Made by a program: the position numbers and the translations under genes. Below the pieces are notes generated by a model. The model saw only the letters and a program-made list of their open reading frames with translations. It did not search any database and was not told where the DNA came from. From the IMG/VR virus record IMGVR_UViG_3300037070_000806, positions 1 through 43,958 of that record: a stretch of 43,958 nt of DNA; one strand, given 5' to 3'. The DNA comes from a virus (taxonomy: Duplodnaviria; Caudoviricetes). Of this stretch, positions 128 through 43,780 are shown one piece after another. How positions within the stretch are numbered: the stretch's first letter is position 1; each line of letters opens with the position of its first letter.

Positions 128-219
128 AGGGTTGACATGGCTGGGGGCGAGCGAAGCGAGGTGCACCATTGTGGCCTTGTGGTTGTGGAATTGTATGCAA
201 TGCTGTATGACTCATACAA

Positions 220-658
220 CTTTGAACGAAATCCTACAACCTGAGACTCGCATCCCATGGATAATAGGGAACTTCCGTGCCTGCGGCGCGAGGATGGAAG
301 TTGCCGACCCGGACGGAGAGGGAGGTTTTGGGAGAGTGTGGGCCTTGCACCCACTCGAAGGTTCCTCCGGTTGTCACCTTTAACCGCACCCCATGAAGTG
401 GGAATGATAGGGATCGGGTGCTTACAGTCACCCCCACAGTTTGAAGCACGTCAATTCGTGCTGATCCCTACCACCAGTTATCCGGACGCCGACTTAACGG
501 CCCTGTGCCTCCGGACGTGCACCCACAAATGAATCCCCCCCGGACCCAGGCGTCACTGGATCACGGGGGGCGAGTCTCCTGCATCGGGCGAGGAGCGCTA
601 ACTGAGAGGGAGCAGAGCCGCCAGAGGTGCCAGCCAAACGACTCTTTTGCGTCTCAGT
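220..658. ncRNA. Candidate structured non-coding RNA or structured DNA region
   Basis: No convincing ORF; dense stems (270-302, 321-368, three-way junction about 408-470, 601-658); lies directly downstream of the leftward promoter at 665-693. Confidence 0.35.
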
Positions 659-664
659 ATATAT

Positions 665-693
665 AGTATAGCACTTGTAAGAGATCGTGTCAA
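665..693 (-). promoter_or_regulatory. sigma70-type promoter, leftward
   Basis: TTGACA-17bp-TATACT with extended -10 TG and upstream AAAAATAG. Confidence 0.8.
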
Positions 694-881
694 GAACTAT
701 TTTTGAGTATTTTTCCTACAAGCCAGAGCGGCAGAAATATTGTTCTGTTCCTGATTTTTATGTAGTTCCTTGGGAACCAGAGTTCTCCATACTCGGTTAC
801 GCATTTGACTGACTTTTCAGTTGTGTGGAGGACTTTAAAGCACCTGAGTTTACCATAGTGATGTTTTTGAGGTAGTTTCAT
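690..881 (-). CDS. Small hypothetical phage protein (63 aa)
   Basis: GAGGCTGCC-ATG start just after palindrome 896; T.K...W.P...I...P.WL pattern seen in small phage proteins. Confidence 0.65.
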   Translation of the reverse strand: MKLPQKHHYGKLRCFKVLHTTEKSVKCVTEYGELWFPRNYIKIRNRTIFLPLWLVGKILKNSS

Positions 882-1074
882 GGCAGCCTCGTGGTTGTGT
901 GAGTCAAACAAGTTTTTGGATCGGTCTCGAGACGCCCCCATATGGGGCTATAGGATGTGAGGGGGTTAGAGTCCGGGATAATATGTGCTCGCCGTCCTAT
1001 GTGTGCTCCGCACACCTACGTCGCCTCGCGGCGCCCCACCCGAACCAGGGGGTTCCCCCTGGCTCCATGTACTT

Positions 1075-1103
1075 ATAATAGCACATAAAAATAACTATGT
1101 CAA
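1075..1103 (-). promoter_or_regulatory. sigma70-type promoter, leftward
   Basis: CTTGACA-17bp-TATTAT, extended -10 TG, upstream AAAATAG. Confidence 0.75.
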
Positions 1104-1126
1104 GTACTATTTTAAGGCACCCTAGT

Positions 1127-1141
1127 TGTATGACTCAAACA
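1127..1141. promoter_or_regulatory. Palindrome site between the divergent promoters (putative operator)
   Basis: TGTATGACTCAAACA lies between the -35 boxes at 1098-1103 (-) and 1186-1191 (+). Confidence 0.65.
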
Positions 1142-1185
1142 AAAATAACTATATATAGCAAAAACATATCACTCAAAAATAATTA

Positions 1186-1214
1186 TTGACATAAAATACC
1201 AGCCATGCTATACT
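1186..1214 (+). promoter_or_regulatory. sigma70-type promoter for the structural arm
   Basis: TTGACA-17bp-TATACT, extended -10 TG, AT-rich upstream element. Confidence 0.8.
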
Positions 1215-1364
1215 TATGATCGTGGGCTTATCTCGACTTGCTCCGTCCAACCCACAACTAAACGGCCGAGGGATTTGGATTTAGGCAGCCTCTCCCTCGG
1301 TCGTCCTCCTTTGAACCGCAGCTTCGGGCTGTGTGACTCATACAAAACCTGAAAGGATAACGTC

Positions 1365-1763
1365 ATGCCGACGTCTAAAACCTATTCGGCTACTGTGCTT
1401 GGTGGTTTCTGGCCGGCGAATGGAGTGGGGACTCTTGTTCCTATTCCTGGGGCGAGGAGTGCTAATAGGCGGTTGGTTGCTCAGTGGCTCGGTGGAAGTC
1501 GGCTGCTTTCGTTTAAGGAGCTGGTCGAGACGCTTAACGGTGTTGCTCCTGGCGCTCTAGCTTCGAAGATTGTGCCAGTGATTGCTGCGAGTCAAGAGCT
1601 TGGTGGTGTGCGTCAAGTCGTTCAGGTTGCTGTTATTAACCGTGTGACGACTGCGGCTGATAAGACAGAAATCGACGATGACCTTCTCACGATGACGAAC
1701 CGAACCACGTTCGGAGCGACTCCACCTGCGAATCTGGATCGCAATCCACTCGGAACTAGGTAG
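1365..1763 (+). CDS. Hypothetical protein, possibly virion-associated (132 aa)
   Basis: ORF with AGGA RBS; first gene of the structural arm. Confidence 0.75.
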   Translation: MPTSKTYSATVLGGFWPANGVGTLVPIPGARSANRRLVAQWLGGSRLLSFKELVETLNGVAPGALASKIVPVIAASQELGGVRQVVQVAVINRVTTAADKTEIDDDLLTMTNRTTFGATPPANLDRNPLGTR

Positions 1764-1795
1764 TGGGCAGCTGCCCACCTTGTGTGAGTCATACA

Positions 1796-2380
1796 ATGGC
1801 ACCTAGACTTCTACCACGGCCACTTGCTAAGTGGGGCGATCCTTACGTGAATCCGGACGGTACTATTGTGCCGCCAGATCGGGTTAACGGAGGGGTCGAT
1901 ACCTCGCTTCCGAAGGTTGATTTCAAGGAATTTAAGCCGCATAGGAAGCGGACAATCAAGGATTTGCCAGCACCTTCGACTACGCTGAATGGGATTGCCT
2001 GTGTATTTATGTACACGACCTTGGGCTTGGGTGATCGCGAGATTGCTGATACGCTCAAAATTACAGTGAAGCAACTGAAGGAGCTGCGTTCGCACCCAGC
2101 TTATGCAGAGTGCTTCGAAGCGGTCACTTCTGAGTTTATCAACATCAACTCGGATATGATTAATGCCAGGATCGCAGCGTACAGTCATGATGCGTTAACT
2201 GAAATTGCTAACATCGCACTAAATGGAAAGGAGGAACGGAATCGACTGAGGGGTAGCACGTACCTAATGAATGCGGGAGGGTACGGCGACAAGTCGAATG
2301 TGGCTGCGTCTGTGGCTAAAAATGATCTGCGAATCGTGATCATCGGGAAAGATCAGGACGTGCGGATCGAAGGTGTGTGA
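1796..2380 (+). CDS. terS: Putative terminase small subunit (HTH protein)
   Basis: HTH-like LGDREIADTLKITVKQLKEL, helical middle, C-terminal beta tail (LRIVIIG); start revised to the ATG abutting palindrome 1781. Confidence 0.55.
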   Translation: MAPRLLPRPLAKWGDPYVNPDGTIVPPDRVNGGVDTSLPKVDFKEFKPHRKRTIKDLPAPSTTLNGIACVFMYTTLGLGDREIADTLKITVKQLKELRSHPAYAECFEAVTSEFININSDMINARIAAYSHDALTEIANIALNGKEERNRLRGSTYLMNAGGYGDKSNVAASVAKNDLRIVIIGKDQDVRIEGV

Positions 2381-2401
2381 GTCACACAACGGGAGGCTGA
2401 G

Positions 2402-2671
2402 GTGAGTGACGTTAGTGACTATACCGATCCTGAGCTTGAGGAACTCGAGCCTGTAACGAAGCCAAAGGAGATGAAGATGGGTAAGTCGAAACAGTTTGGT
2501 GATATGGCAGTAGAGGGCGTGGAAGGTGAGCCAGAAGCTGCGCCTCTGCCGCCGACGCCTGAAGAGATTCAGTCGGCTCATGATGATATGAGGCTGCTGC
2601 AAGACGAGAAGATCGCAGCGAATGCTGAGGCTGAGAAGGAGGCAGCTGAGGCCGCTAAACCAAAGTCTTAG
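2402..2671 (+). CDS. Acidic hypothetical protein (89 aa)
   Basis: GGGAGG RBS, GTG start. Confidence 0.7.
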   Translation: MSDVSDYTDPELEELEPVTKPKEMKMGKSKQFGDMAVEGVEGEPEAAPLPPTPEEIQSAHDDMRLLQDEKIAANAEAEKEAAEAAKPKS

Positions 2672-2762
2672 CGGTTGGGTTCCTCCCGATCAGTTCAACC
2701 GCTGAGGGGTGCAGGAAGTACATCCACGGCTTTCTGCACCTTCAGATGTATGAGTCATACAA

Positions 2763-5254: not shown

Positions 5255-5272
5255 AAGTTGTATGAGTCATAC

Positions 5273-6238
5273 ATGTCCTACCTCGGCCAAGTACAGAATC
5301 TGGACTGGACCTCGCCTAGCAGGATATTTGCGACTACGGTCGAGCTATTCAACTCACAGCCGAACTACGAGCACGAAGTGGCAATCGCTCTTGATACACG
5401 CATCAAATATCAGGGAGTTGCACCAGTCGTGGGTGGTTGGGGTTATGCGTCGGGTGCTCCTGGTCCTGGGATTCCTCCTGTTCCTCCCCCCGTGAATGAC
5501 AGTTACACCAAAGTTCTGCTTGAGTTCGACGGAATTGAAGGGTCAACAACGTATGTCGATACGAATGCGTCAAAGATGCCTCGAAAGTGGACTCAGCGGA
5601 GTGGTTTGGGTCATATTACGAACGTGGGGGAGAAATTTTATAGTGGTGCGCTGTACTTAGATGGAAAAACTGTGATCACAGCGCCTGATGAGAGCCTTGC
5701 GTTTATTAGGGACACTGATTTCTCGATCAGAGGATGGTTTCTCTGCGATTTTCCGTTAGGGACTCGTCGAACTCTTGTTGCAAAGACTGATGAGGCTGTT
5801 ACTGACTACGTTTTTTGGATTGATCGTGATGAAACAGGCTTGATTGAGGCTGGACTGAATACGCGAATCATATTTGATCATAACATCGTAGATAGGTTCA
5901 ACGTAAGCATTCTGGATCGTATAGGGGACTTCATTGTTGATAGATTTGACCCGACGGCTGTTGCAGGACAACACGTTTTGAAGAGTCAGATGCCCTATAC
6001 AGATACGGTCAATACAGGATGGCACCAGTTTTCGTTTCGTAGAACAGTCAACATGTTGAATCTGGCTCTTGATGGTGATGTGGATAGCAGTTCAACTGTT
6101 GGAAGTGAGGTAGTCAATCAACTGCCAGGAACATTGACGATTGGTGGCTATGGTCCGCCAAAAAATGGTGTTTACAATGGCAATCCTTGGATCGGTGGTC
6201 TAGATCGGTTCGCGATAGACATCGGAATAGGTCGATAG
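5273..6238 (+). CDS. LamG/concanavalin-A-like domain virion protein
   Basis: TKVLLEFDG...ALYLDG...DFSIRGW...WHQFSFRR...LTIGG...GGLDRFAI pattern; ATG overlaps the end of palindrome 5259. Confidence 0.75.
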   Translation: MSYLGQVQNLDWTSPSRIFATTVELFNSQPNYEHEVAIALDTRIKYQGVAPVVGGWGYASGAPGPGIPPVPPPVNDSYTKVLLEFDGIEGSTTYVDTNASKMPRKWTQRSGLGHITNVGEKFYSGALYLDGKTVITAPDESLAFIRDTDFSIRGWFLCDFPLGTRRTLVAKTDEAVTDYVFWIDRDETGLIEAGLNTRIIFDHNIVDRFNVSILDRIGDFIVDRFDPTAVAGQHVLKSQMPYTDTVNTGWHQFSFRRTVNMLNLALDGDVDSSSTVGSEVVNQLPGTLTIGGYGPPKNGVYNGNPWIGGLDRFAIDIGIGR

Positions 6239-6854: not shown

Positions 6855-6871
6855 TTGTATGAGTCATACAA

Positions 6872-7168: not shown

Positions 7169-8710
7169 ATGCCCAACTACCGTCTAGAAGAGGGATCGGC
7201 GCAGCATGCTTTCCAGCAGAGCCGCGCGAAGGTACAGATTTTTGGGGGTGGGTTTGCGAATGGGAAGACGACTGGGCTTGTGATCAAAGCCTTACACTTG
7301 GCGAAGTTCTATCCTGGGTGTACGGGTTTGCTTGGTCGGGAGACTTACCCGAAACTCAACGACACGCTGAGGAAGGAGTTCTTCAAGTGGTGTCCACGTC
7401 ATTGGGTCAAGAAGATGCCGACGCAAGATGACAATAGTGCGTACCTGGTCAACGGTAGTGCTGTGCATTTCCGGTACATTGCACAGCGTGGGAAGAGTGT
7501 GAATGAAGATGGCACGACGACAAGCAATTTGCTCAGTGCTACGTATGACTTTATTGGTCTGGACCAAATTGACGATCCTGGGATTACGCACAAAGATTTT
7601 CTGGACCTTCTCGGCCGTTTACGTGGTGATACGCCTTATCGTGTCGAAGAAGGTGCAGAAGACGAAACTATGCCGAGCGACGGCCCGCGATGGCTTATGA
7701 TGACACTTAACCCAAGTCAGAATTGGGCGTATCATGAACTTATCAAGCCATACCTTGATTGGAAAGAGAGGAAGATATTTAGCGATAAGTTACTAGTGGA
7801 CGAAGACAGTCATATGCCAATTGTGGAGTTGTGTGAGTCAGACACATATGCGAATAAGGCAAATCTGAAGCCGGACTTCATTCGAACGCTTGAGACGACG
7901 TACAAAGGCCAGATGCGAGATCGGTATCTGCTCGGTAAGTGGGCAGCCTTTGAGGGGCTTGTTCATCCTGAGTTCGATACTGCCAAGCATGTTGTAAAGC
8001 GGGAGGCTATGCTTGACCATCTCTTCGCCTGTAGACAGAAGCACGTCAGGATCAAGGCTATTGAGGGGTATGATTTCGGCATTGTTACTCCAACTTGTTA
8101 CATTCTGGGTTTTGTTGATGACTATGGTAGGGTTTGTCTACTGGATGGCTTCTACCAACCAAATTACGATGTTATGCAACACGCAAACACAATCAGGGAG
8201 ATTAGAGGACGCTACAGTGGTCTACTGTTCTTCAATGAGCCACTTGTTGCCGACCCTGCCATCTTCCGAAGGATCGTCGTTGCTGGTCAAGCGGTAAGGA
8301 ACACGACCATTGCGCGTATTCTTAAAGATGGCGGGCTTAATCTTCGAGCTGGTAGTAGTGATGTCCTATCTGGCATTGCTAAAGTCAACTCGTATATTGC
8401 CGGAACCCATAAGACTCCGCATCTTACAACTCATGATCGCCCAGGACCATTGCTCTACGTCGCTGCAGAATTACCGTGGTTCCAAGACGAAGTGATGAGT
8501 TACTACTGGAAACGGGACTCGCAGGGACGAAACATCGACGAGCCGGTAGACTCACACGACCATGCGATGAATACGGTTAAGTATATGCTCAGTAAGCTTC
8601 CTGATCCGAGCGAAATCGTCGTACCAGAGGATGCGTTACCGCCTCGCTGGAAATTCTGGAACGAGATGAATATGGATGACTACAAGCGTGCGACTGGGAG
8701 AATACACTAA
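7169..8710 (+). CDS. terL: Terminase large subunit
   Basis: Walker A GGGFANGKTT, motif TLNP, RYLLGKW, nuclease GYDFG and DHAMN. Confidence 0.93.
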   Translation: MPNYRLEEGSAQHAFQQSRAKVQIFGGGFANGKTTGLVIKALHLAKFYPGCTGLLGRETYPKLNDTLRKEFFKWCPRHWVKKMPTQDDNSAYLVNGSAVHFRYIAQRGKSVNEDGTTTSNLLSATYDFIGLDQIDDPGITHKDFLDLLGRLRGDTPYRVEEGAEDETMPSDGPRWLMMTLNPSQNWAYHELIKPYLDWKERKIFSDKLLVDEDSHMPIVELCESDTYANKANLKPDFIRTLETTYKGQMRDRYLLGKWAAFEGLVHPEFDTAKHVVKREAMLDHLFACRQKHVRIKAIEGYDFGIVTPTCYILGFVDDYGRVCLLDGFYQPNYDVMQHANTIREIRGRYSGLLFFNEPLVADPAIFRRIVVAGQAVRNTTIARILKDGGLNLRAGSSDVLSGIAKVNSYIAGTHKTPHLTTHDRPGPLLYVAAELPWFQDEVMSYYWKRDSQGRNIDEPVDSHDHAMNTVKYMLSKLPDPSEIVVPEDALPPRWKFWNEMNMDDYKRATGRIH

Positions 8711-8740
8711 CAATTGTATGACTCATACAAGGATCGTGTC

Positions 8741-10300: not shown

Positions 10301-10317
10301 ATGTGTGAGTCATACAA

Positions 10318-12531: not shown

Positions 12532-13568
12532 TGCCACCGGACGAAAAGAACCTGTCGAATCAAGCGGCAGAGGACACCGTATTCTCGAACCTCGGACTCA
12601 CCCGAGAGGACTTGGGTATTACCGATGATGACGGTGGGAGTGGGAACGAAGACCTTGGCCTTGGTTCTGGAAACGAGGACCGTGGAGGTTCGGGTAATGA
12701 GGAACAAGAAAGTCGTACGAGTCATACAACCGAGCGCAGCGGTTTGCCTCCGACGGCTGAGGTCCATCCTGACCACAAAGGGAATCTTGTCAACGAGTAT
12801 GGCCAGATCGTTGCTCGATCGGGAAAGGAAGCTCGTCTCTATCAGGACTTACACAAGACGAAAGGCCAAGCCCAAACTCTCCAGGGCCAAATTCAGGACG
12901 TTACGGGGCGTCTGCGGAAGGCTGTGGAGATAGGTCAGAATTTACATCGGGAACTCGAGACTGCTCGTGCTCAAATGGGTGCGGTAAAGCAATTCGGATT
13001 GGAAGAGGGTGAACATCTCACAGCACTCCGACTATACAAGGAGCTTCGCGACAATCCTCGGGATGCCATAAAAAACATCTTGACAAGAGCCGCAACAAAT
13101 GGTATAAATATAGCTGAATTAGGTCTTCAAGGAGGTGTCGATCCCCAAGCTCTTGTTAACATGATTAAGCAGGAGATTGGGTCTGCGGTGAACCCGCTCA
13201 GGGAGCGTACTGAAGCGGAGAGGCGTGCGGCAGCAGCACAGCAGCAGAACCAGCAGCGACTCGGCGAGATACAAGGTGAAGTAGACGGATTTTTTAATCA
13301 GAACCCGGAGGCCAAGCAATACCTTCCGGTGTTTACTCAGACGATCAAGCAGTTCCCAGGAATGTCGCTTGGTGAAGTCTGGGCCAGAATACAGTTACAC
13401 TTCGAACGGAACCCGCAATCGCGGCGTAATCAGAACTCGCCTCGGCGAAGTCTCCCGCAAGGTCGCGGTGTGCCTGTCAATGGCGCCGGTCCTGATCTTG
13501 CACCCGTAACGGACTCGTATGATGCCATCGTGAAGGATGCACTATCCAAAGCGGGTTTCGTACGGTAG
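12531..13568 (+). CDS. Capsid scaffolding protein
   Basis: Acidic disordered N-terminus, coiled coil, position between portal and capsid. Confidence 0.7.
   Translation: MPPDEKNLSNQAAEDTVFSNLGLTREDLGITDDDGGSGNEDLGLGSGNEDRGGSGNEEQESRTSHTTERSGLPPTAEVHPDHKGNLVNEYGQIVARSGKEARLYQDLHKTKGQAQTLQGQIQDVTGRLRKAVEIGQNLHRELETARAQMGAVKQFGLEEGEHLTALRLYKELRDNPRDAIKNILTRAATNGINIAELGLQGGVDPQALVNMIKQEIGSAVNPLRERTEAERRAAAAQQQNQQRLGEIQGEVDGFFNQNPEAKQYLPVFTQTIKQFPGMSLGEVWARIQLHFERNPQSRRNQNSPRRSLPQGRGVPVNGAGPDLAPVTDSYDAIVKDALSKAGFVR
13080..13108 (+). promoter_or_regulatory. Internal sigma70-type promoter upstream of the major capsid gene
   Basis: CTTGACA-17bp-TATAAA with extended -10 TG, inside the scaffold CDS. 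Confidence 0.6.
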
Positions 13569-13597
13569 TTGTTTGACTCATACAAGGAGACTTAGAC

Positions 13598-14566: not shown

Positions 14567-14581
14567 TGTATGAGTCATACA

Positions 14582-15690: not shown

Positions 15691-15730
15691 GGTTGTGTGA
15701 CTCATACAACTACGGGCGAGGAGAACAGCG

Positions 15731-18264: not shown

Positions 18265-18297
18265 CTTGTGTATGACTCATACAACTGGAAGATAGTC

Positions 18298-19914: not shown

Positions 19915-19940
19915 TTGTATGACTCATACAGGAGGGCATC

Positions 19941-21437: not shown

Positions 21438-21479
21438 ACTTGACAAGCCGTTGTATGAGTCATACATAAGGAGGGCGAC

Positions 21480-23254: not shown

Positions 23255-23305
23255 CCTGTGTGAGTCGGGTCGCTTAATTCACTCAACCTTGTGTGAGTCA
23301 TACAG

Positions 23306-27997: not shown

Positions 27998-28014
27998 TTG
28001 TATGACTCACACAA

Positions 28015-28233
28015 CTACATGTTCAGGTAGTCTGTCGCTCGCCAGATGACACGTTTGGGGTCCAGCGTAAACCGCTGGACCTTTTCTTCCTGCCAGAGTG
28101 AATGAAGCTCTGTGATTATATCCTCTTTAGGAATGTGCTGGAACCGCCGAAGTATCTCTTTCTCCGTGTGCCCCGATGTTCCTGACGCTATAAGGTATGC
28201 AGACAACACAGCTCTAACGTCCCTGATAGTCAC
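28015..28233 (-). CDS. Small winged-helix-like protein
   Basis: GGAGG RBS and GTGA overlap with the pol stop; helix-helix-helix-hairpin pattern ending KVQRF...VIWR. Confidence 0.5.
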   Translation of the reverse strand: MTIRDVRAVLSAYLIASGTSGHTEKEILRRFQHIPKEDIITELHSLWQEEKVQRFTLDPKRVIWRATDYLNM

Positions 28234-30746
28234 AGATGGACCTCCTTCATATGCGACCACCTGTGGAGTCCCTTAGAGTCCTCAACAAAAGTCTTGCCAT
28301 CCCACGACGTAGGATAGGACATCTTAAGTTCCGCTGGAACAATCAATGGTTCCGGCTTATGTTTGTACACGTCTTGGATCATGATTGGCGCCTCCGCGTG
28401 TTTCTTCATTATTTTGAGACAAGTCTTCGCGTATTTTGGAGTTGTAATCGGAACGAGGTTGTCATGTACGTCGATCGCTATGCGGGCATATTTTCGGTCG
28501 GGCCATTCGTCATCTTCCTCACACATATACCAGACTCGCGTGACCTTATCCCCAATTGTAGACTGGGGATAAAATGCGATGATACTATCTAGTACGTCGT
28601 CATCTAGTCGCTGGATGACCTTAAAGCGCCGACCCAACCCGTTGTATATCTCCCGCGTGGCCTTAAAGTTCTTCTCTTCCGCGGCCCACCAATATCGAAG
28701 CTCTGGGGTAATGCTATGGTACACGGCCCAAGCACGCGCCGCTTGGTGGAATGGTAAGTCAGTAACCTCCGCAAGCTTCCACTTCTCCATCCTGTAGTTA
28801 AGACCATGACGACACCGCTTGGCTATGTACCGGATCGTAGGGGCATCATTCTCATCCCAGTCCTTCAACGGCACCTGATCGTATGGCATCTTGAACATCT
28901 CTGATGCTAACGCTCGATGGCAGTCATACTTGCCATCGAGGCGTGCTTGCTCAAATTGTTCTTTCCATTTGGGTATATTTGCTCGATAAGCAACAACCCG
29001 AGCCTCTGCTTGCGAGAGATCAAAATATAAAAGCACGCAGCCAGGATCAGCAACATACATACTACGCGCACGAACGGGTTGGTTCTGCATGTTTCCGCCT
29101 TCACCGTATATGAGCGCAGCGGAGGAGAGTCGTCCGGGTGCCCGACTAACACCGTACTGCTTATACTCACATCTAAACCTACCATCCGAAGAAACCTTTG
29201 ACTCAGCGTAAGTCCCTCGGAACTTGTCTTCCTTTTTGAATCTGTTAAGGGCACCGATCATCTCCTTTGCTATTGCCGGAGTACCTGAGTCGCGCATAAT
29301 GTTGTCACGATTAGCTTCGTCTGTGGACGTACCCTTGCCTTTCAGCTTGAGCCGTGTAAAGAATAAGTCCTGTAGCTGTTGCCACGATCCGGGATTTGGG
29401 AAGTAGTCCTCATCATCCACCGCCTCTTGTGCGAGACGCTGAAACTCAGCTTTGTAGTTATCCACGTCCCGATTGACTAGCTCCGTGATGCTCTCTCGTA
29501 TATCCATATCCACCTTCACACCATGAACACACGCTGCGACGAGATGTGGCTGCGCCCTCATGACGTGCTCGAAGAAGAATTTCTCTTGTCCTTGTTGCTT
29601 GAGTTCTCGTTGTAGGGATTCGAAACAAGCGTAAGTGAGGGCGGCATCGGTACAATTATAAATCCAATAACTGTCAATGTCCCCTCCTTCCTTCCACTTC
29701 TTCCCATCATCCTTGTAAAAGGGATGCGTAGTATACTGCGATACGAGAAAGGCAAGACTATGGGGAAGTTGAGGGTAAAGAGTGTGGTGAGCCAACAGTG
29801 TATCGAACCAAATCCTAATACGGAGGCCGTTTCGAAGCCACTCATGATAGGTGTCGAACGAGCCGTTTTGGGCGATGATCCTGTTTGAGTCACACATGTT
29901 TTGTAGGGCCAATAGAAGTTCACGCTCTTGGCGAATACTGTATCTATTGTCTCGTCCGTCACGCAGATTGATACACATAGCTGTGTGAGCATCATTCGAT
30001 AGCCCATAGCACACAGTCTCCGTTGTATTCATCGTCTCAATGTCAAACGAGATGGGCTTCTTAGCCTTGTTCAACTCCTTAATGAACACCATCGCCTCGT
30101 TGAACGTTGGGTTGATTATGGCCTCAACACGATGTGGTCTAAAGACATTTCGATTAACGAGGTCGAGCTTCTTGCAGTCCATTCGAAAGACTGGCTCAAA
30201 CTTAAGTTCGCGCTGTGCGTAAGCGGGGTTGAAGGCGCATACAACTCGTCCTCGCTTACCATTGGGAAGCTCTGTGTCAATGACAGAACCCCTCCAGTTG
30301 GTGACTCCGGTACTTCCGAGAATAGCTTCGAGAGCATAGTTTCCCATTGCAAAGATAATGCTGCAGTTGGGAAGCTGCGCGAGTTCCCATTTGAGCAGGC
30401 CGATCCACTTATCGAGTTCGTCTCTGTGCACGATGTGACGTTCATTTCCTTTTCTGGAGAGACTGATTTGTCGCTTGACCACATTAGTAGTGTAAACGTT
30501 TGTTCGATTGATTCCGTAGGCTTGAGTGGCGCTCCAAAGTAAGTGACCAGCTCCACCAACAAACGGAAGTCGTTGAGGATGACGAAGCTCAGTCTCTCCC
30601 GGTCCCTCACCGACAATCGCGACTGAACTTGTAACGGGGCCATCTGAGAACACCTCTGTGTCAAGAAGTAATTGGCTTGCGTGTGTTCTGAAGTCTAATT
30701 CAAGTTCGTGGCGGGTGATCTGAGGCAGCTCGATCTTTTGCAGCAT
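28230..30746 (-). CDS. polA: Family A DNA polymerase with N-terminal uracil-DNA-glycosylase-like domain and 3'-5' exonuclease
   Basis: UDG-like VGEGPG..E/PFVG.AG/TNVVK; exonuclease FDIET, QNGSFD, YNCTD; polymerase GRLSS, DLSQAEAR, KRCRHGLNY, VHDN; AAGGAG RBS. Confidence 0.93.
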   Translation of the reverse strand: MLQKIELPQITRHELELDFRTHASQLLLDTEVFSDGPVTSSVAIVGEGPGETELRHPQRLPFVGGAGHLLWSATQAYGINRTNVYTTNVVKRQISLSRKGNERHIVHRDELDKWIGLLKWELAQLPNCSIIFAMGNYALEAILGSTGVTNWRGSVIDTELPNGKRGRVVCAFNPAYAQRELKFEPVFRMDCKKLDLVNRNVFRPHRVEAIINPTFNEAMVFIKELNKAKKPISFDIETMNTTETVCYGLSNDAHTAMCINLRDGRDNRYSIRQERELLLALQNMCDSNRIIAQNGSFDTYHEWLRNGLRIRIWFDTLLAHHTLYPQLPHSLAFLVSQYTTHPFYKDDGKKWKEGGDIDSYWIYNCTDAALTYACFESLQRELKQQGQEKFFFEHVMRAQPHLVAACVHGVKVDMDIRESITELVNRDVDNYKAEFQRLAQEAVDDEDYFPNPGSWQQLQDLFFTRLKLKGKGTSTDEANRDNIMRDSGTPAIAKEMIGALNRFKKEDKFRGTYAESKVSSDGRFRCEYKQYGVSRAPGRLSSAALIYGEGGNMQNQPVRARSMYVADPGCVLLYFDLSQAEARVVAYRANIPKWKEQFEQARLDGKYDCHRALASEMFKMPYDQVPLKDWDENDAPTIRYIAKRCRHGLNYRMEKWKLAEVTDLPFHQAARAWAVYHSITPELRYWWAAEEKNFKATREIYNGLGRRFKVIQRLDDDVLDSIIAFYPQSTIGDKVTRVWYMCEEDDEWPDRKYARIAIDVHDNLVPITTPKYAKTCLKIMKKHAEAPIMIQDVYKHKPEPLIVPAELKMSYPTSWDGKTFVEDSKGLHRWSHMKEVHL

Positions 30747-30765
30747 CGCTTGCTCCTTGTATGAG

Positions 30766-30897
30766 TCATACATCTAGCTTGGGTTCCTTCAAGACACGTA
30801 AAATGTCCATGAGAGTGTTTGAGATTGCCCATGCCCAGTAAGTGAACCCTGTGCCGAATATCAGCACAACGACGGTTAACAGTTGAATATCAGTCAT
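30766..30897 (-). CDS. Small single-TM protein (43 aa, not in the ORF track)
   Basis: MTDIQLLTVVVLIFGTGFTYWAW...; ATGA overlap with the helicase stop; its stop lies in palindrome 30758. Confidence 0.55.
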   Translation of the reverse strand: MTDIQLLTVVVLIFGTGFTYWAWAISNTLMDILRVLKEPKLDV

Positions 30898-32111: not shown

Positions 32112-32385
32112 TGCCTGTCCCCGGTGGAGCATGAGGATTAACTCTTGGAGGTAGACCTTCTTCTGGGTCTACAATAGTGATGTGGACTTTATAGACTGGC
32201 GCATCCATGTCCTCGAAGTCGTCCGGTGGAATGTTAGTCCTTAGATACATCACCATCATAGGGTTGCCACCATTCATCTCGCTGACAAACCTAACAGTGT
32301 CTTCCACTTCGGTTACGAATAAGTCTCCAGGTCTAAGATCACATGCCAGCTTCTTTTCCAGCTTGATGAATGCCTTCTGTGTCAT
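32101..32385 (-). CDS. Hypothetical protein (94 aa)
   Basis: Coupled ORF in the replication operon. Confidence 0.65.
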   Translation of the reverse strand: MTQKAFIKLEKKLACDLRPGDLFVTEVEDTVRFVSEMNGGNPMMVMYLRTNIPPDDFEDMDAPVYKVHITIVDPEEGLPPRVNPHAPPGTGNGK

Positions 32386-32582
32386 ACGACTTCTGCCATT
32401 ACTTTACGTGCTGCTTGGATAGTCACCATCCGCAGAAACTGAGAAGTTGACATATTCAATACGTGTGCCGCTTTATCTATGTCCTCCTTATCATCTGCCG
32501 ATACTCTATAGATGATTTGTATATCACCAGTCCTAGCAGTCAACTCGCCGAGACTGATGACAATATCCCTGGGCTGCTTCAT
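32382..32582 (-). CDS. Ribbon-helix-helix (DUF1778/CopG-like) DNA-binding protein
   Basis: IIYRVSADDKEDIDKAAHVLNMSTSQFLRMVTIQAA pattern; AAGGAG RBS. Confidence 0.7.
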   Translation of the reverse strand: MKQPRDIVISLGELTARTGDIQIIYRVSADDKEDIDKAAHVLNMSTSQFLRMVTIQAARKVMAEVV

Positions 32583-32643
32583 AGCAAACTCCTTCAGAAA
32601 AGGGGCCGATGTATGACTCATACATACACCGGCCCTAGTTCAG

Positions 32644-33597: not shown

Positions 33598-34424
33598 TTG
33601 TCTCTCCTTGACGCTGGGATTGACAGCTTCGCGTTGCCAGACACCCACTTCTCGTAGAGCGATGCGATCGTCATCTGACCCTTGTCTGGCTTGTTTGAGT
33701 CATACGGCAACATGAACGCAGGCTCTCCGATACCAGTAAACATACGGGACTTCATCGGTCGATGCTTAAGCCACGGCCGCACCGCGAGCTGACGACCTTT
33801 GCTGTCCTGATCTAGATACCAAATCTCACTCAGACGCCACGTTACGTTGTTCACCAACTTACCACCCAACATGATGGTAATGTACTGCACGATGCCTTCC
33901 TTGTCCTTCTCGGGATCAGCCTCATGCGCTGTCAGGATCAGATGCACATCATGCTTGGCTGTGATCCTCAACAGCTTCGTTAGCACCTCGAGCGTGATAG
34001 CGTTCCGCCCACCATAGGCAGACATACCGGGATGCTCCATCGTAGGCACGAAGCCCTTACCCATACCGAGCTTCATGCCTACCGCAGCACGCAACGCCAT
34101 GTCAGTCAATGCCGTTACCGAATCACACACCACCGTCTCGATGTCGGTATCGTTATGCAGTATGTGATCGAGGTCGAACGGATTATCTGATCTCCCATGC
34201 TTGAGGACATCATCGTAGCTGTACTTATACAGTGGCATTACAGCTACGTCCTTCCTCTCCATCACAGACTGATGCTCGTTATCTCCGAACGACAACCACA
34301 GCTTCTTTCCAGGTGCCGTGCCTGCCCATGTTGTCTTGCCACTTCCAGCCGGACCCCACAGTAGAATGGTCATCCGACGTGACGTGTCTCCTTGAGTTGT
34401 TACTTCGAATGGGCTTGTCATCAC
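33594..34424 (-). CDS. sak4: Sak4-like AAA_24 ATPase (recombination/single-strand annealing)
   Basis: LLWGPAGSGKTT, VVCDSVT, ILTAHE; lies between the nuclease and SSB genes. Confidence 0.75.
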   Translation of the reverse strand: MMTSPFEVTTQGDTSRRMTILLWGPAGSGKTTWAGTAPGKKLWLSFGDNEHQSVMERKDVAVMPLYKYSYDDVLKHGRSDNPFDLDHILHNDTDIETVVCDSVTALTDMALRAAVGMKLGMGKGFVPTMEHPGMSAYGGRNAITLEVLTKLLRITAKHDVHLILTAHEADPEKDKEGIVQYITIMLGGKLVNNVTWRLSEIWYLDQDSKGRQLAVRPWLKHRPMKSRMFTGIGEPAFMLPYDSNKPDKGQMTIASLYEKWVSGNAKLSIPASRRDK

Positions 34425-35560
34425 TCACTCACGGCTCGTTCACTGGGGCTTGGTTCTGCCGGGACCATGAGTTCATCGAAAGCCAGCTTGCGTCCGGCGG
34501 CCCCATCCGGGTCTGCACAAAAACTAAGTAGCGAGCATGGTCGAAAGTAGCGATTACAAGAGTGCGTGAACCGAGTCGCATGTTCAAAATCGTCCCGATG
34601 CCTTTCGTATATTTCAGCCATCTCACGAACCCACGTAGCCCAGTGCTGAATATCATCCCACTTCCTCACGATTGGTTCGAAGGGATACACGTCCTCACCC
34701 TTGTTCATGGGCTTGATGCGTAGTCCAGTCACCCGACTTCTGTAGACTTCGAACCCGAAAACGCTAGTACTTGCCGCACAGTAACCAGTAAGCTGATGCC
34801 TCATGTCAAAGGCGTTCCGCCATGCATCTCCGAGCCTTGCCGCAGTCTTGTTCTCGTCAAGGTAATATTCACCAGTGCTCGCTTTGCTAACCAAACCGTC
34901 AATGGTTCCAACGCAGCGAATCTCCTTGTTATCCTCGTAAGTAAGTACAACGTCGAACACTTGCTCAATCCCCACACAAGACTGGGGGTTGCTTTCGTCC
35001 TCCACGTATATGGGCCAATTCTCCATCTTAGGTAGATGCTCATCGACATAACATATGGTTGCAAGCTCCATGTTCGTCATGGTCCGAGTCGGATCAGTCG
35101 GTGCATCCTTCCAACCACTCGAGCTTAACACTCTGAAGCACAACTCGAGCAACTGGTCACGTTCCTCTGTGTGAGTCAAACAATGGTTCCAGCAGAGGTT
35201 CCACCTAGCCGCCTTGAAGATGCGACGCCCCACTACCTGAGCATGTGCATCGAAGCCCTGCTTGCGACTCAACTGCCATATCCTGACAGCCGCAAACACC
35301 TGATGCATCAGCTCACCCGCCTCCAGTGCCATGCTTCGCGCGTCGCTTGGGTATCGCCTTTGCATGTGCACCACTCCCCACGTCGGGCACATTGCCAAGT
35401 CCTCGAGTCGGGAGTTTGAGTAAGGATGCAAGGTCTTCTTCTGTGCTGGAGACGTGGCCGATACTTGCATCAGCCTCGGGCGGTTTACCCTCGTCAGCCT
35501 CTCTTCCGTCCTCGTCTTCGGCCGGATCGCGCTTAGTGGCACTCGCGGCATAATGGGCAT
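34421..35560 (-). CDS. PD-(D/E)XK Cas4/RecB-like exonuclease
   Basis: SNSRL...CP, GTIDG, DENKT, QLTGY, C-terminal C.....C.....C cluster; GAGGAGG RBS. Confidence 0.8.
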   Translation of the reverse strand: MPIMPRVPLSAIRPKTRTEERLTRVNRPRLMQVSATSPAQKKTLHPYSNSRLEDLAMCPTWGVVHMQRRYPSDARSMALEAGELMHQVFAAVRIWQLSRKQGFDAHAQVVGRRIFKAARWNLCWNHCLTHTEERDQLLELCFRVLSSSGWKDAPTDPTRTMTNMELATICYVDEHLPKMENWPIYVEDESNPQSCVGIEQVFDVVLTYEDNKEIRCVGTIDGLVSKASTGEYYLDENKTAARLGDAWRNAFDMRHQLTGYCAASTSVFGFEVYRSRVTGLRIKPMNKGEDVYPFEPIVRKWDDIQHWATWVREMAEIYERHRDDFEHATRFTHSCNRYFRPCSLLSFCADPDGAAGRKLAFDELMVPAEPSPSERAVSE

Positions 35561-36272: not shown

Positions 36273-36296
36273 AGCTTGGCTCCTCTGTTGTATGAC

Positions 36297-36587
36297 TCAC
36301 ACATACTCTTCCAGTACACCAACTTCCTGCCGCAGCTGCTCGATCGCTTCAACCCTACGTTCCAATGCATAGATCGCACGGTCACATCGTTCGAGTTCCT
36401 TGCCAAGCATCTCGTAGTGTGCCTTAAGCTTGCGCCGAACCTTATCCTGTTCATGCTCAAGCTTAAGGTCTTGGCCCGCAGCATACTCCATCGCAGCAAC
36501 GATACGCCTAGCTCGGATCATCTCCAATCTTTGTTCCAACTCTTCTGTCGTCATCTCCTCGATCGTTCGCTGCAACACCAACGGCAT
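36297..36587 (-). CDS. Coiled-coil hypothetical protein
   Basis: GAGG RBS; stop codon inside palindrome 36289. Confidence 0.7.
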   Translation of the reverse strand: MPLVLQRTIEEMTTEELEQRLEMIRARRIVAAMEYAAGQDLKLEHEQDKVRRKLKAHYEMLGKELERCDRAIYALERRVEAIEQLRQEVGVLEEYV

Positions 36588-37006: not shown

Positions 37007-37095
37007 GGCAGCCTCTGTTGTTTGAGTCACACAAGAAGGTACTCGATCATCTTCATGATAACCACGACGAGGAGTACCCTCCAAATGATAGGCAT

Positions 37096-37813: not shown

Positions 37814-37835
37814 CTTGCACCTCTAGTTGTATGAC

Positions 37836-38120
37836 TCAAACATAGTTCTTCGTGGGATACCCTGCCTCACGTAACGCAGCACTCAAAGCGATAACCTCAT
37901 CCCGATGGACAAGGGACCGCTTCAACTTCTTACCCTTCGACCGACGCGGCACACTCCCGATTAGACTCGACGCAATCGCGGCAACCGCCTCGAGCGCATC
38001 CATCTTAGCGGCTGTCTGAATAAGCAACTCCTTATTCAAACCATTGGCCCCGTTCTCGAGCTTATCAGCAATCGAGATCAGTAGTTGCGACAAACCATTA
38101 GACTTAGGTAGCTCATTCAT
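37836..38120 (-). CDS. Hypothetical protein (94 aa)
   Basis: GAGGCTGCC-ATG; stop inside palindrome 37828. Confidence 0.7.
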   Translation of the reverse strand: MNELPKSNGLSQLLISIADKLENGANGLNKELLIQTAAKMDALEAVAAIASSLIGSVPRRSKGKKLKRSLVHRDEVIALSAALREAGYPTKNYV

Positions 38121-38221: not shown

Positions 38222-38570
38222 GTCCTCCTCTAGATTCACTCCACGCAAGCCGTTTCGCAAGATCACCCAAGCTGTACTCCCCGCTAATACATATACGGTC
38301 CCTGTTGCCTGGCCCACCCAACTCAACAACGCTTCCTTCCTTAGAGATCGCGCTGTCTGTAAAATGATCCGCAAGTGCCTGTTTCTTCGCACTGTTCAGC
38401 CCTCTCTGACCAATGACCTCGAGGATAATCAGCATCATTCGACCGATGATGATCGTGGACTTAGCCTCATTGTTGTATGACTCACACAGGATATCCGCTT
38501 GCAGCTTCAACTGGTCGAACAGCTGCCTGCGCCTCGCGCGTTCTGCTCGCCTCTTCTCATTATCTCTCAT
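38199..38570 (-). CDS. Hypothetical protein
   Basis: ATGA overlap with the upstream gene; contains palindrome 38474 in frame. Confidence 0.6.
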   Translation of the reverse strand: MRDNEKRRAERARRRQLFDQLKLQADILCESYNNEAKSTIIIGRMMLIILEVIGQRGLNSAKKQALADHFTDSAISKEGSVVELGGPGNRDRICISGEYSLGDLAKRLAWSESRGGQTIENNI

Positions 38571-39661: not shown

Positions 39662-39735
39662 GATTGCACCTTGTATGAGTCATACATCATCTGAGCGGGA
39701 CTTGGCATCCACTGAGAAGCACAAGCCAGACAAGA

Positions 39736-40002: not shown

Positions 40003-40173
40003 TTAATGGCGTTGCTTGTTCAGTTGCTCTCGTATCCGCGTGACCAACTCCTCTCTCGTCCCGCGTCCAGATTGTCCCAACCTCTGACAGATAGACCCAA
40101 GGCTTATCATGGGCACCTGATCGAAGTTATCCTGCTCATGGGCGATAAGCCAATCTTGAAACCTCTCGTCCAT
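40003..40173 (-). CDS. Small SAP/HEH-motif-like protein (56 aa, not in the ORF track)
   Basis: MDERFQDWL...SLGSICQRLGQSGRGTREELVTRIREQ; GAGGAGG upstream; abuts the upstream stop. Confidence 0.55.
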   Translation of the reverse strand: MDERFQDWLIAHEQDNFDQVPMISLGSICQRLGQSGRGTREELVTRIREQLNKQRH

Positions 40174-40497
40174 CTACTTACGATCCTCCTCAATCGACTG
40201 GCGCATAGACGCAGACCCGTAGATGTTCTCGTCGTCACGATCCCAGAACTCAGGATCGCTATCCCATTGACCCATCGAACGCAGTCGGTCTTCCTCGACC
40301 AACCTCTCTGTCGCAGCCTCGGCGCTTTCCTTCACCACCGTGAACACAAACGACGATGCCTTGTCTGCGAACTCCATGTATGTCTTGACGATACCCAGCA
40401 GATCGTCCAGCTCAAACCTCGTCTGGTAGCCATAGTCCTCCTCTTTGCCATCAGGATAGTTGGATGTGATATGCAACGTGAACACTGTATGAGTCAT
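40174..40497 (-). CDS. Acidic hypothetical protein (107 aa)
   Basis: Start codon and first residues (MTHT) are encoded by palindrome 40486; GGAGG RBS. Confidence 0.7.
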   Translation of the reverse strand: MTHTVFTLHITSNYPDGKEEDYGYQTRFELDDLLGIVKTYMEFADKASSFVFTVVKESAEAATERLVEEDRLRSMGQWDSDPEFWDRDDENIYGSASMRQSIEEDRK

Positions 40498-40500
40498 ACA

Positions 40501-40988: not shown

Positions 40989-41060
40989 GGCACCTTCTCC
41001 TTTGTTGTGTGACTCAAACAACTTCCGTCTTCCGTCTCACTCAACTCACACAATACCATA

Positions 41061-41089
41061 ATTATAGCACTTTGATATCACTGTGTCAA
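41061..41089 (-). promoter_or_regulatory. Consensus sigma70 promoter
   Basis: CTTGACA-17bp-TATAAT with extended -10 TG; nearly identical to the promoter at 38153-38181. Confidence 0.85.
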
Positions 41090-41109
41090 GTACTATTTTT
41101 GGCCACCTA

Positions 41110-41147
41110 CGTTGTGTAACCTGAAGTCCGTTGTGTAACCAGAAGTC
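41110..41147. repeat. Tandem 19-bp repeat CGTTGTGTAACCWGAAGTC x2
   Basis: 41110-41128 and 41129-41147, one mismatch. Confidence 0.8.
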
Positions 41148-41159
41148 CGGGAGGGGGGG

Positions 41160-41181
41160 GGAGGGGCGCGGACGCCCCTCC
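41160..41181 (-). terminator. GC-rich hairpin after 41184..41387
   Basis: GGAGGGGCG/CGCCCCTCC stem; followed by a C-run rather than a U-run. Confidence 0.4.
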
Positions 41182-41183
41182 GG

Positions 41184-41387
41184 TCAGGCATCCCGCGATG
41201 GGATCACCACGACGATGCAGTTGGGAAGCTGTTGACGCCACACTTTTGCCAGCGCAACGTTGTATTTCGCCTCACGCACCACGCGGCCGCTCATTTGCAC
41301 CTGCCGCATGATGGCTGTTCGTTCGAGGCGCGACTGGAAGCGCAGCGCAGATTGCGCCCACTTCCAGTCCTTGTCAGTGATCTTCAC
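41184..41387 (-). CDS. Basic hypothetical protein (67 aa)
   Basis: GTGA overlap with the upstream small ORF. Confidence 0.5.
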   Translation of the reverse strand: MKITDKDWKWAQSALRFQSRLERTAIMRQVQMSGRVVREAKYNVALAKVWRQQLPNCIVVVIPSRDA

Positions 41388-41512
41388 CCGAGCACCACAA
41401 ACGCGATGTGGTCATCCGCACGCAGCAACTTGTACGCAAGCATCGCAGCTTGCATGGTGACGAAAGGCTTGCGCGCCCACCCGTCTCCTATCAGTACCCA
41501 TAGCGTTATCAT
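41384..41512 (-). CDS. Small hypothetical protein (42 aa, not in the ORF track)
   Basis: GAGGTG RBS after palindrome 41530; MITLWVLIGDGWARKPF... Confidence 0.5.
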   Translation of the reverse strand: MITLWVLIGDGWARKPFVTMQAAMLAYKLLRADDHIAFVVLG

Positions 41513-41545
41513 ATTGGCACCTCTTTTGTTGTATGACTCAAACAA

Positions 41546-41579
41546 CAATGGGGCGGAGCATTGTCGCTCCGCCCCGTTG
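41546..41579 (-). terminator. Intrinsic terminator after the 316-aa gene
   Basis: GGGGCGGAGC/GCTCCGCCCC stem then TTGTTGTTT on the - strand, running into palindrome 41530. Confidence 0.7.
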
Positions 41580-41583
41580 CTCC

Positions 41584-42534
41584 TTACTCGCCGAGAGCCT
41601 CACTGATCGCGCTCTGCAAACTCTCGAGCGCGTTAATGAGTTCCTCCGACTTCTCCTCAGGCAACTTTCCAATTGCCTGTACCATGTGGCCACAGCGCGC
41701 GATCAAATCCTTGATCGGATCAACTGCCGTCGTCTGAACGCGGCTGTCCTTACGTTGGACAATCGCGACGCCGTGTTTCTCGCCCACCTTCCGCATGATC
41801 TCAGTGAAGCTGGGGCGAGCCTTCAGCTTCTTCTTGTCGACGACGACGCCTTTCTTGTCGCGGATGTCAACGTTCTCATCCTCGTTCAAGAGCACGCTCG
41901 CCATGCCGAAATGCGACTTCACTGCGGAGCCGGATTTGCCGTCTGTCAAACGGAGCAACCCGGTTTCCTCGTCGCGTTCCACCTTCAGGCCGTTCTCCAC
42001 TGCGTGCAGCGCAACTCGCGCTGACTTAGTGACCATCGTCGAGAAGTTGGAACGCACACTCGCCTTCAACTTGGCGGTACGCTCGTCGTCGGAAGTGTCC
42101 ACCATCATAAGCGCGCGAGCCTCCGGCTTCCACTTCCCGTCAGGCCCAGCAAGGCCGATAATCATTCTCAGCTGTACGCCGAGTTTGTTTTTCTGCACCT
42201 TGTGGGTCTTGGCGTCTAACAGACTGTCCGCGAGATTGATTGACTTGTCCGCGACCGCAGCCTTGTGGAAAGCCATTGCCAGCGCAACTTGCGCCCGTCC
42301 ACGCCGCTTGTCGTTGCTTTCGCGGAGTTCGTCCATCTGCATTACGTTCGTGACGGTAGCCGCCACGTCGCGGAGTGCTTCCATCCCAACGTCGAGAGAA
42401 AGCGCAGTAGACTTCAGCGTGGGAACCAATGCGGTTCCCTCGTCGTCGTCGAGTGCCGTCATGGCCGTTGTGCCTTTTGCCTTAACCGCAATCGGCGTGG
42501 CCTTGGCAGCACGCTTCACTGTCTGTTTAGCCAT
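41584..42534 (-). CDS. Lys/Ala-rich hypothetical early protein (316 aa)
   Basis: GGAG RBS, own promoter and terminator, flanked by palindromes. Confidence 0.8.
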   Translation of the reverse strand: MAKQTVKRAAKATPIAVKAKGTTAMTALDDDEGTALVPTLKSTALSLDVGMEALRDVAATVTNVMQMDELRESNDKRRGRAQVALAMAFHKAAVADKSINLADSLLDAKTHKVQKNKLGVQLRMIIGLAGPDGKWKPEARALMMVDTSDDERTAKLKASVRSNFSTMVTKSARVALHAVENGLKVERDEETGLLRLTDGKSGSAVKSHFGMASVLLNEDENVDIRDKKGVVVDKKKLKARPSFTEIMRKVGEKHGVAIVQRKDSRVQTTAVDPIKDLIARCGHMVQAIGKLPEEKSEELINALESLQSAISEALGE

Positions 42535-42607
42535 TGCTCCGTTTCCTTCTTGTTGTATGACTCAAACAAGTCATACGGGGTGAATGTTGCATTTCCGCAA
42601 CACCTCG

Positions 42608-42637
42608 ATCATAGGCACATTGTCGCACCCATGTCAA
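42608..42637 (-). promoter_or_regulatory. sigma70-type promoter
   Basis: CTTGACA-18bp-TATGAT; upstream AAAATAG as in the other leftward promoters. Confidence 0.6.
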
Positions 42638-42943
42638 GCCCTATTTTGCACTGCCGCGGAGCAATTCCGCAGTGCAAAAACTCGGATTTACGGGAACGTT
42701 CCAGACTATTCGTCGCCTGTTGCTTGTCGTAGGACGGTGCTTCCTAGGGCGCAGCCTACAATTGCCGCAACTTGCAAACATGCGGAACCAATGTCCGTTG
42801 CCTTTTTTGCCTAGGATCAAATCAGAGCAAAAGGAACGACAAGGTATCCCGTAGCATGTTCCAGAACGTCCCGGTAAATCCGAGCGCATTTTCTTTTCGC
42901 AAAGTAACAAACGCGGGCATTTGCGCCCGCAATCTAGTCTCGC

Positions 42944-43201
42944 TCAATTGGCCTTGTCAGGCACGCGAACAAAATCCTTTTTCGCGGCCGACTTCGTGAC
43001 GTATCCCTTCCGGCTCACACATTCCGCGCGGAAAGTATTCCACGCGGCCATGCCCTCGCCCTTCGGGGTATTCTTGCGAGTGTCGCTTTCCTTCCACTCC
43101 GCACCGCAGGTACGCAGAACGTCGAGGTAGGTAGCGGCGTTTTCCGCATTGGCCGAAACGACCGACACGATCAGCGCCGCAATTGCAAGAATGTTTCGCA
43201 T
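42944..43201 (-). CDS. Small secreted protein with signal peptide (85 aa)
   Basis: GAGGTG RBS; MRNILAIAALIVSVVSANA signal; C..EWK...W..F..EC motif. Confidence 0.7.
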   Translation of the reverse strand: MRNILAIAALIVSVVSANAENAATYLDVLRTCGAEWKESDTRKNTPKGEGMAAWNTFRAECVSRKGYVTKSAAKKDFVRVPDKAN

Positions 43202-43780
43202 TTTAACACCTCTTTTGAAACGGCGCGCGATATGCGACACCGTGTCCATACGGACAAAAAGCGCCGCACAAAAACCATTGTGCGGCGCAAAAAGAGACGT
43301 TTTCAGTTTTCAGTTTCACGGGGAAAATGCTAGGCGTTTCAGGCGCCTCCCCCAAGTCACTGTCACCGCCAATCCTACCCTTCGGTCGCGTTACCGCTTC
43401 ACGGCATCACCCGGAAAAGCGCGCGCCTATCTCTCAGACCAGTCACGAACGGACAGTTGGACCTCGATACACCTGCGAGTTCTCGTTCCTCGCTTTGCGC
43501 GCGGTGACGTGTCTTCACGCGATCGGCTCATAATACAGGCCTTGGGCGACCCCGCCTCGAAACCTCCGCTCCCGCGACCCGCGACCACCGCGACCCGCAC
43601 TAGTAACCTACCAAATCCTGCCGGGATTGCTATCATTCTTATAGCTCTTCACGCTTTCGTGATCGACCGTCGCAACCCTTTGAAATCGCTCACCTATTCG
43701 CGCCGAGGCACGGAATACGTGACCTCAAATCGCGCTCAATTGTTTGAGTCATACAACCCGAATCAAAAAACCGAACGTGA

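Follow-up and report, generated by a model that had tools for sequence, protein, structure and literature searches.

Conserved inverted repeats lie between genes throughout the genome of the Streptomyces phage phiC31, where a phage protein binds them. This article concerns 37 copies of a 15-bp palindrome, TGTNTGASTCANACA, in a phage that differs from phiC31, which is temperate and has an integrase and a large repressor. The phage is represented by IMG/VR record IMGVR_UViG_3300037070_000806, the whole of which, 43,958 nucleotides, we call the window. The closest described counterpart of its array is a 17-bp dyad found in 34 copies, plus 3 near copies, in Cluster O mycobacteriophages, with a function given as unknown in the accessible part of the report (PMC4351075). 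Our array is real, family-wide and selected, and the best candidate for its reader is a 66-residue ribbon-helix-helix (RHH) protein, encoded at 32382..32582 on the minus strand and predicted to fold like TacA, AtaR and KacA. We put the probability that this protein reads the sites at about 0.6.

As far as the accessible text of the Cluster O report goes, the two arrays share a variable 3-bp centre, sites both in and between genes, a lack of orientation, a phage with no integrase and a predicted dimeric reader (PMC4351075). At least 30 near-identical dyads, a variable centre, no orientation, no integrase and a site that is not enriched in hosts were all found in the window, and the array is of the same kind as the Cluster O repeats. 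The initial annotation of the window, made from its letters alone, had taken the kind of system to be undescribed, a view that Cluster O with its 34 copies overturns (PMC4351075, the portion available). For this particular motif or system, no description turned up in the literature searched, which lay mostly outside subscription journals and was taken without supplements. The phages and the sequences are unrelated, and whereas the intergenic sites of Cluster O crowd one arm, by the same partial source (PMC4351075), those of the window are even on both. The window also offers an RHH candidate with a site upstream of its gene, and motif variants that can be followed from lineage to lineage.

Other described systems are further away. 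Cluster A stoperators, in the sections of the source at hand (PMC6550527), likewise comprise 20-30 sites across the genome, most of them away from promoters, with a lineage-specific consensus and a phage-encoded reader; they differ in being oriented with transcription, in belonging to temperate phages and in a motif distance that tracks repressor distance. Many sites were found here too (37, and 34-51 in relatives), without asymmetric orientation or lysogeny genes, so the array works somewhat like the stoperators and is not a member of that class. Microbacterium Cluster EG phages, which like the window phage lack a repressor and an integrase, carry 18-bp inverted repeats, dyads 14-22 bp before gene starts; their copies number 8-10 and keep to one genome end (PMC7302621). 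TacA, KacA and AtaR, together with the viral proteins SvtR and F55, resemble our candidate in fold, in a strand arginine and in likely self-repression through a nearby operator, but act at one to a few operators at promoters (PMC6698736 and PMC5569661, each in part). Unlike TacAT, KacAT and AtaRT, the RHH gene has no adjacent GNAT toxin, for which the window gave no match, and its product has an extra conserved N-terminal V-x-I-x-L...G stretch.

The palindrome matches the window exactly 34 times, with one mismatch at 25523 and 33692 and with two at 12714; allowing three mismatches adds only 2 further matches. At no more than one mismatch there are 36 copies against 0.06 expected (100 shuffles), so our recount agrees with the 34 exact and three near copies first reported and with their rarity by chance. 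Placed on our own gene list, in which five gene starts are approximate, 25 of the 37 sites fall between -15 and +40 of a gene start, 5 are otherwise non-coding and 7 are deep within genes, which bears out the original estimate of about 30 copies between genes or at their boundaries. Density is similar across the arms, at 0.79 and 0.94 per kb. On the sense strand, positions 4 and 12 make a Watson-Crick pair in 15 sites and a G-T pair in 8; the other 14 are unpaired (T/T 4, G/A 3, A/A 3, T/C 2, G/G 1, A/C 1), again as first noticed. The proposed extension to GTTGT...ACAAC is present but partial, its flanking positions being G in 24, T in 21, A in 28 and C in 14 of the 37 sites. A TGTNTGA half-site had also been put forward; family-wide, only T at -5, TG at -3 and -2 and, mostly, G at -6 have stood, and the rest of it has not.

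The family is a large one, with 211 viral contigs from soil phages carrying a capsid gene matched to the window. Among the best 80 of these 211 capsid-gene loci, 79 hold at least two core words, at a median of 6.7 per 10 kb against 0.17 in shuffled sequence. Twelve near-complete relatives each have 34-51 sites of lineage-specific versions, where 0-0.2 would be expected. Among the versions, the base at -4 is A, G or T, position -6 is relaxed in G007 and G013, and the centre is free in G001 and G028. In the branch of G026, G027 and L219 the base at -1 is A or T and the GANTC of the core is lost, while 31-35 evenly spaced sites are kept; only 3 of 31 sites in G026 and 1 of 35 in G027 bear GANTC. 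The complete but distant G024 (with L233-L235) has its own palindrome, of the TACACGTGTA type also seen in L227, in 19 copies against 1.2 expected. In L226, a record of 19,760 bp and 43% completeness, TACA-N5-TGTA occurs 21-24 times, often as TTACAA-N3-TTGTAA, and a search for a longer record gave none. Three outgroup phages, with a polymerase 25% identical, showed no excess of TGASTCA and no RHH match below E 0.29. Another outgroup locus, the 22-kb L231, has five copies of a palindrome of TTAACA-A-W-TTGTTAA type.

The sites are read as double-stranded DNA and not as RNA hairpins, and they have no orientation. Directly beyond the 15 bp the stem extends by only 0-4 pairs in the sites of the window. 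The centre base on the sense strand is G in 20 sites and C in 17, and over 13 genomes G in 274 and C in 213. In each of the 11 informative genomes, asymmetric sites place G at -4 on the centre-G side (p<0.05 in six; p 0.30 in the window), and a coupling of this sort cannot come from base pairing, which argues for reading as DNA. Could the sites nevertheless act as RNA, as translation or processing signals at gene starts? It is true that 25 of 37 lie near gene starts, that sense-strand G-T exceeds A-C in both the window (8:1) and G005 (24:8), and that one site does sit in a true hairpin. Across the genomes, however, the non-pairing G/A also exceeds T/C (84:45), a parallel that makes the G-T excess a bias rather than a sign of pairing. 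Centre and flank are coupled, some sites lie well inside genes or where the arms converge, and there is no Rfam match. We find the RNA explanation highly improbable. The unpaired positions, the coupling and the sites deep in genes all uphold the original preference for a dimeric DNA-binding protein.

Spacing was tested in 13 genomes; two of them, G008 and G009, nearly duplicate each other, and part of the ends of G005 is repeated. The coefficient of variation (CV) of the spacing is under that of uniform random placement in all 13 (p<=0.021); that of the window is 0.57, where a junction-aware null gives 1.01 (p 5e-5). Among 363-466 control 6-mers, in 5 genomes, none or 2% were as even as the sites. 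Only 7 of the 13 genomes have a largest gap that is significantly short, and the presence of a site shows no significant dependence on upstream gene length (p 0.19). The junctions that carry a site vary from lineage to lineage. Sites had been said to mark gene junctions, and most do adjoin genes, but the junctions used are not fixed. Long genes have sites inside them: within the 4.7-kb virion gene all 13 genomes carry sites, whose places differ from genome to genome, and the mid-gene near copy of the window (25523..25537, one mismatch) is among them. The polymerase gene has one at the same codon position in 12 of 13 (29882..29896), the putative scaffold gene has one in 11 of 13 (12714..12728, two mismatches), one part of the exonuclease gene in 11 of 13, in two reading frames (35168..35182), and the capsid gene in 0 of 13. 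Further sites of the window lie within the genes for the terminase large subunit (7830..7844) and the Sak4-like protein (33692..33706, one mismatch), and within a small early-arm open reading frame (38474..38488). All this fits an array selected for coverage of double-stranded DNA rather than for gene-by-gene control. Junctions would be favoured because a 13-15-bp word is cheapest there. A genome-wide, coating-type system was among the first suggestions made for this DNA, and the even spacing and the internal sites in long genes speak for it.

Turning to the candidate reader, the RHH gene is present in all 13 records that are at least 90% complete and in 17 of the 23 searched overall, always as a single copy and always between the SSB and helicase genes; in the window its neighbours are SSB, an unknown 94-residue protein and then the helicase. 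No regulator had been visible to the initial annotation, and yet this gene and one for a winged-helix-like protein are core genes of the family. The protein family that this gene heads has 234 representatives. The model of the RHH protein (predicted local distance difference test score, pLDDT, 86) superposes on TacA1, KacA and AtaR with a root-mean-square deviation of 0.7-1.4 Å over about 45 residues (probability 1.00), and its Atlas likeness to RHH clusters is 0.93. The strand arginine is invariant in 28 of 28 lineages and present in 142 of 149 family representatives. KacA contacts guanines through its strand arginines, which are required for binding, according to the part of the source available (PMC6698736), and our arginine probably occupies this guanine-reading position, if the register taken from the alignment is right. 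The site nearest the gene (32610-32624) is held in a terminator-like hairpin on the minus strand (32603..32635), 3' of the SSB gene and 27 nucleotides before the RHH start. The hairpin follows the SSB gene in 13 of 13 genomes, with a site inside it in 10 and just after it in 2, and of 20 distinct RHH loci among the matches listed, 14 have it directly 5' of the RHH gene. The distant G024 has a TacA-like RHH protein in the same operon and no match for the winged-helix-like protein or for the 316-residue early protein considered below.

Several observations weigh against the RHH protein as reader. Its Pfam matches (NikA-like, TacA1) are weak, just under the curated cut-offs, and its Foldseek E-values to the nearest folds are 0.06-0.2. 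No site accompanies the post-SSB hairpin in G017, and another gene stands between hairpin and RHH gene in 6 of 20 distinct loci among the matches listed. The sites of G024 are unevenly spaced (CV 0.97), and none adjoins its RHH gene. L226 gave no RHH match in a stretch that covers the usual RHH slot; L223 and L224, over 7.7 and 11 kb, have a divergent RHH protein yet show no clear palindrome. A mirror-tree comparison of motif and RHH distances over 28 lineages, with the polymerase (a quick tree) removed, gave a partial r of 0.01 (p 0.45), where the helicase gave 0.16 (p 0.013). A single-residue recognition code on the RHH strand was considered and dropped, as no clean code ran across lineages: the change of Gln to Gly with a relaxed -6 G is one event, and a link of Pro with the loss of GANTC is contradicted by L214. 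Searches of loci for distant RHH subfamilies yielded none that were new.

How might such an array work? At slightly less than even odds, we would say that the 37 sites dock RHH dimers that coat each genome copy and damp the traffic of host RNA polymerase. Dimers made together with the replication genes would dock on the double-stranded sites at about 1.2-kb intervals of every genome copy. Bound to the hairpin site ahead of its own gene, the protein would exert negative feedback, and this may keep occupancy roughly constant while the DNA replicates. Sites 30-90 nucleotides after strong promoters would turn early transcription down, and the remainder would be the coat, placed where the word costs least, mostly at gene junctions. 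Over the 13 genomes there are 40 strong sigma-70-like promoters, and 20 of them are followed by a site at 30-90 nucleotides, against 2.2 under a rotation null, a comparison that leaves the shared intergenic preference of promoters and sites uncorrected and to that extent counts against the proposal. In the window, one such promoter with 12/12 consensus (41061-41089, minus strand) has a site 48 nucleotides past its -10 box (41006..41020), and another (42608-42637, minus strand) has one 47 nucleotides past (42554..42568). Half-sites at 42569-42576 and 41039-41049 adjoin, or lie just upstream of, the full sites behind these two early promoters. Divergent sigma-70-like promoters span 665..1214, with 1186-1214 on the plus strand for the late arm and 1075-1103 and 665-693 on the minus strand for the early arm, each an 11/12 match to consensus and called by that match; the site at 1127..1141 lies between two of them. 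A single strong promoter, at 1186, apparently drives the late arm, which would be impeded by strong roadblocks at some 20 positions, a further difficulty for the proposal; any effect on elongation must therefore be weak or relieved, and a structural role is possible. A bolder version, which we consider unlikely, is a sequence-addressed nucleoid: in a lytic family, a self-limiting RHH protein would sit on each genome copy along a lattice whose even 1-kb spacing is selected for, and it might serve as a scaffold that orders replicating DNA, load host replication factors in place of a primase, or break host silencing filaments, with other words and possibly other readers in distant branches.

Other proteins could read the sites, or the RHH protein could read them to another end. 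The 72-residue winged-helix-like protein (28015..28233, minus strand), a core gene that was missing from the initial list of open reading frames, might read them as marks for the loading or priming of replication, in a phage without a primase gene. Its gene is in 13 of 13 genomes and in L226, which has no RHH match; it matches the C-terminus of DUF3987 (HH probability 95%), with weak winged-helix hints (Z-alpha, SelB, FaeA; E 0.01-0.9); and no primase matched in the window or among the accessory open reading frames of relatives, of which 95 of 164 were scanned. The mean spacing of the sites is near the length of an Okazaki fragment. What makes this unlikely to us is that complete G024, which still has a palindrome, shows no match to it; that its putative recognition helix, by our assignment of that helix, conserves only Leu and no base-reading side chain; that its partial correlation with the motif, polymerase again removed, is 0.11 (p 0.07); and that the phages L223 and L232 have full-length DUF3987 without an array. 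The rest of the DUF3987 gene is missing throughout the clade, and 28015-28233 is its freed C-terminal domain. Alternatively, the RHH protein would be a dormancy or carrier-state repressor acting in the manner of Cluster A stoperators. In number and spread the sites resemble the repressor sites of L5-type phages, of which there are 20-30 (PMC6550527, in part), the archaeal viral RHH protein F55 holds SSV1 in a carrier state (PMC5569661, in part), and sites do lie downstream of strong promoters. Set against this are the lack of any integrase or ParA/B match in the window or the 95 accessory frames scanned, the absence of capsid relatives, as of any prophage, from 185,579 prokaryote species (GTDB, one genome each), the unoriented sites, and an RHH gene that stands in the replication operon between SSB and helicase and in the window has no strong promoter consensus of its own. 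A repressor of that sort is distinctly unlikely, and a role in lysogeny is made less likely by the place of the gene, the missing integrase and the missing prophage. The initial annotation was right that neither an integrase nor a CI-like repressor is found in the window.

The reader may also be another core protein, either the 316-residue early protein (41584..42534, minus strand) or the terminase small subunit. The former is in 12 of 13 genomes, the thirteenth record lacking the region, follows a promoter plus site in 8 of those 12, and resembles the Streptomyces phage repressor c family in its features, at a score (0.81) below threshold; the latter is a core gene with a stretch that reads like a helix-turn-helix (HTH). 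The model of the 316-residue protein has no fold match, however (best Z 6.0), its lineages share 25-32% identity while the motif core is fixed, and G024 has no match to it; the terminase small subunit has no Pfam match. Both are decidedly doubtful as readers, and the former is a weaker rival to the RHH protein. The 316-residue protein is in itself conserved and basic, with a confident model (predicted template modelling score 0.71) and many uncharacterised viral look-alikes. A host protein might read the sites, possibly through CcrM-type methylation of the GANTC in the core, since all 17 genomes tested have less GANTC outside the sites than expected. We doubt this strongly: G026 and G027 keep 31 and 35 even sites with 3 and 1 bearing GANTC, and each lineage has its own consensus. 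Moreover, 30 unrelated prokaryote genomes have a 17-bp form of the site in a single copy apiece, never in a cluster, and the window's commonest word is found at 104 viral loci, of which the 15 with at least two sites all come from this family and 70 others have a single one. A requirement for CcrM was rejected, as the sister phages G026, G027 and L219 drop GANTC yet keep their arrays. A bZIP-like reader for the core, which we take to be AP-1-like, was rejected too: the coiled-coil core protein does not have the Asn-x7-Arg pattern of bZIP proteins.

Why phages without lysogeny genes carry genome-wide dyad arrays has been asked ever since Cluster O was described. This family supplies a 66-residue candidate reader, natural variants of the motif and quantitative evidence of selected spacing, and binding work in vitro is possible without the host. 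If even spacing is the function, a 44-kb phage genome would have a chromosome-like organisation.

The window is the complete, circular-assembled genome record of a podovirus-like soil phage (G000), with a terminal repeat of 127 bp at its ends that may be assembly overlap. Soil metagenomes contain DNA near-identical to it, and no RNA data set is listed as containing it. One contig end from a soil run resembled a join of the identical sites at 36289 and 38474; no such joint appeared where both lay inside the stretch, and it was not counted. There is no relative at the DNA level among cultured phages (first 25 kb compared), and the best protein matches are 22-40%, so the host could not be named. 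GANTC is the most depleted interrupted palindrome of the window, and its depletion outside sites (observed-to-expected ratio 0.40-0.91 in the 17 genomes) includes genomes whose motif lacks it; it is a possible host signature, with an alphaproteobacterial host only hinted at.

Sites at 204..218, 896..910 and 43741..43755 lie in the non-coding control region. The rightward arm holds terminase, endolysin, portal, capsid and tail genes, with sites ahead of the first late-arm gene (1330..1344), at the start of the terminase small subunit gene (1781..1795), at a gene junction (2374..2388), at the start of the tail-fibre gene (2747..2761) and at two further gene starts (5259..5273 and 6856..6870). 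They continue ahead of the endolysin gene (8715..8729), at the start of the portal gene (10302..10316), ahead of the major capsid gene (13570..13584) and 3' of it (14567..14581), at junctions (15694..15708, 18269..18283, 19916..19930 and 21452..21466) and at the start of the gene for the 1563-residue virion protein (23290..23304). One site marks the convergence of the two arms (27999..28013). The leftward arm encodes an exonuclease, a Sak4-like protein, SSB, a RecD-like helicase and a family A polymerase with a uracil-glycosylase-like domain, and its sites lie ahead of the polymerase gene (30758..30772), at junctions (36289..36303, 37019..37033, 37828..37842 and 39672..39686), across a stop and a start (40486..40500) and beside a terminator-like hairpin at 41550-41575 (41530..41544).

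Methylase genes, like those for integrase and primase, had no match in the window or in the 95 of 164 accessory frames scanned from relatives. Three outgroup phages, L170-L172, have a methylase or ParB-like gene between the SSB region and the polymerase, roughly at the position of the RHH and helicase genes of the family, and L171 has a few repeated palindromes. A Cro/CI-type HTH gene lies in the early arm of G026, a changed-motif lineage (L216:1090-1344). An anti-defence gene of the Acb2/Tad1 family is present in three relatives (G011, G015, G017 family), at L129:280-507.

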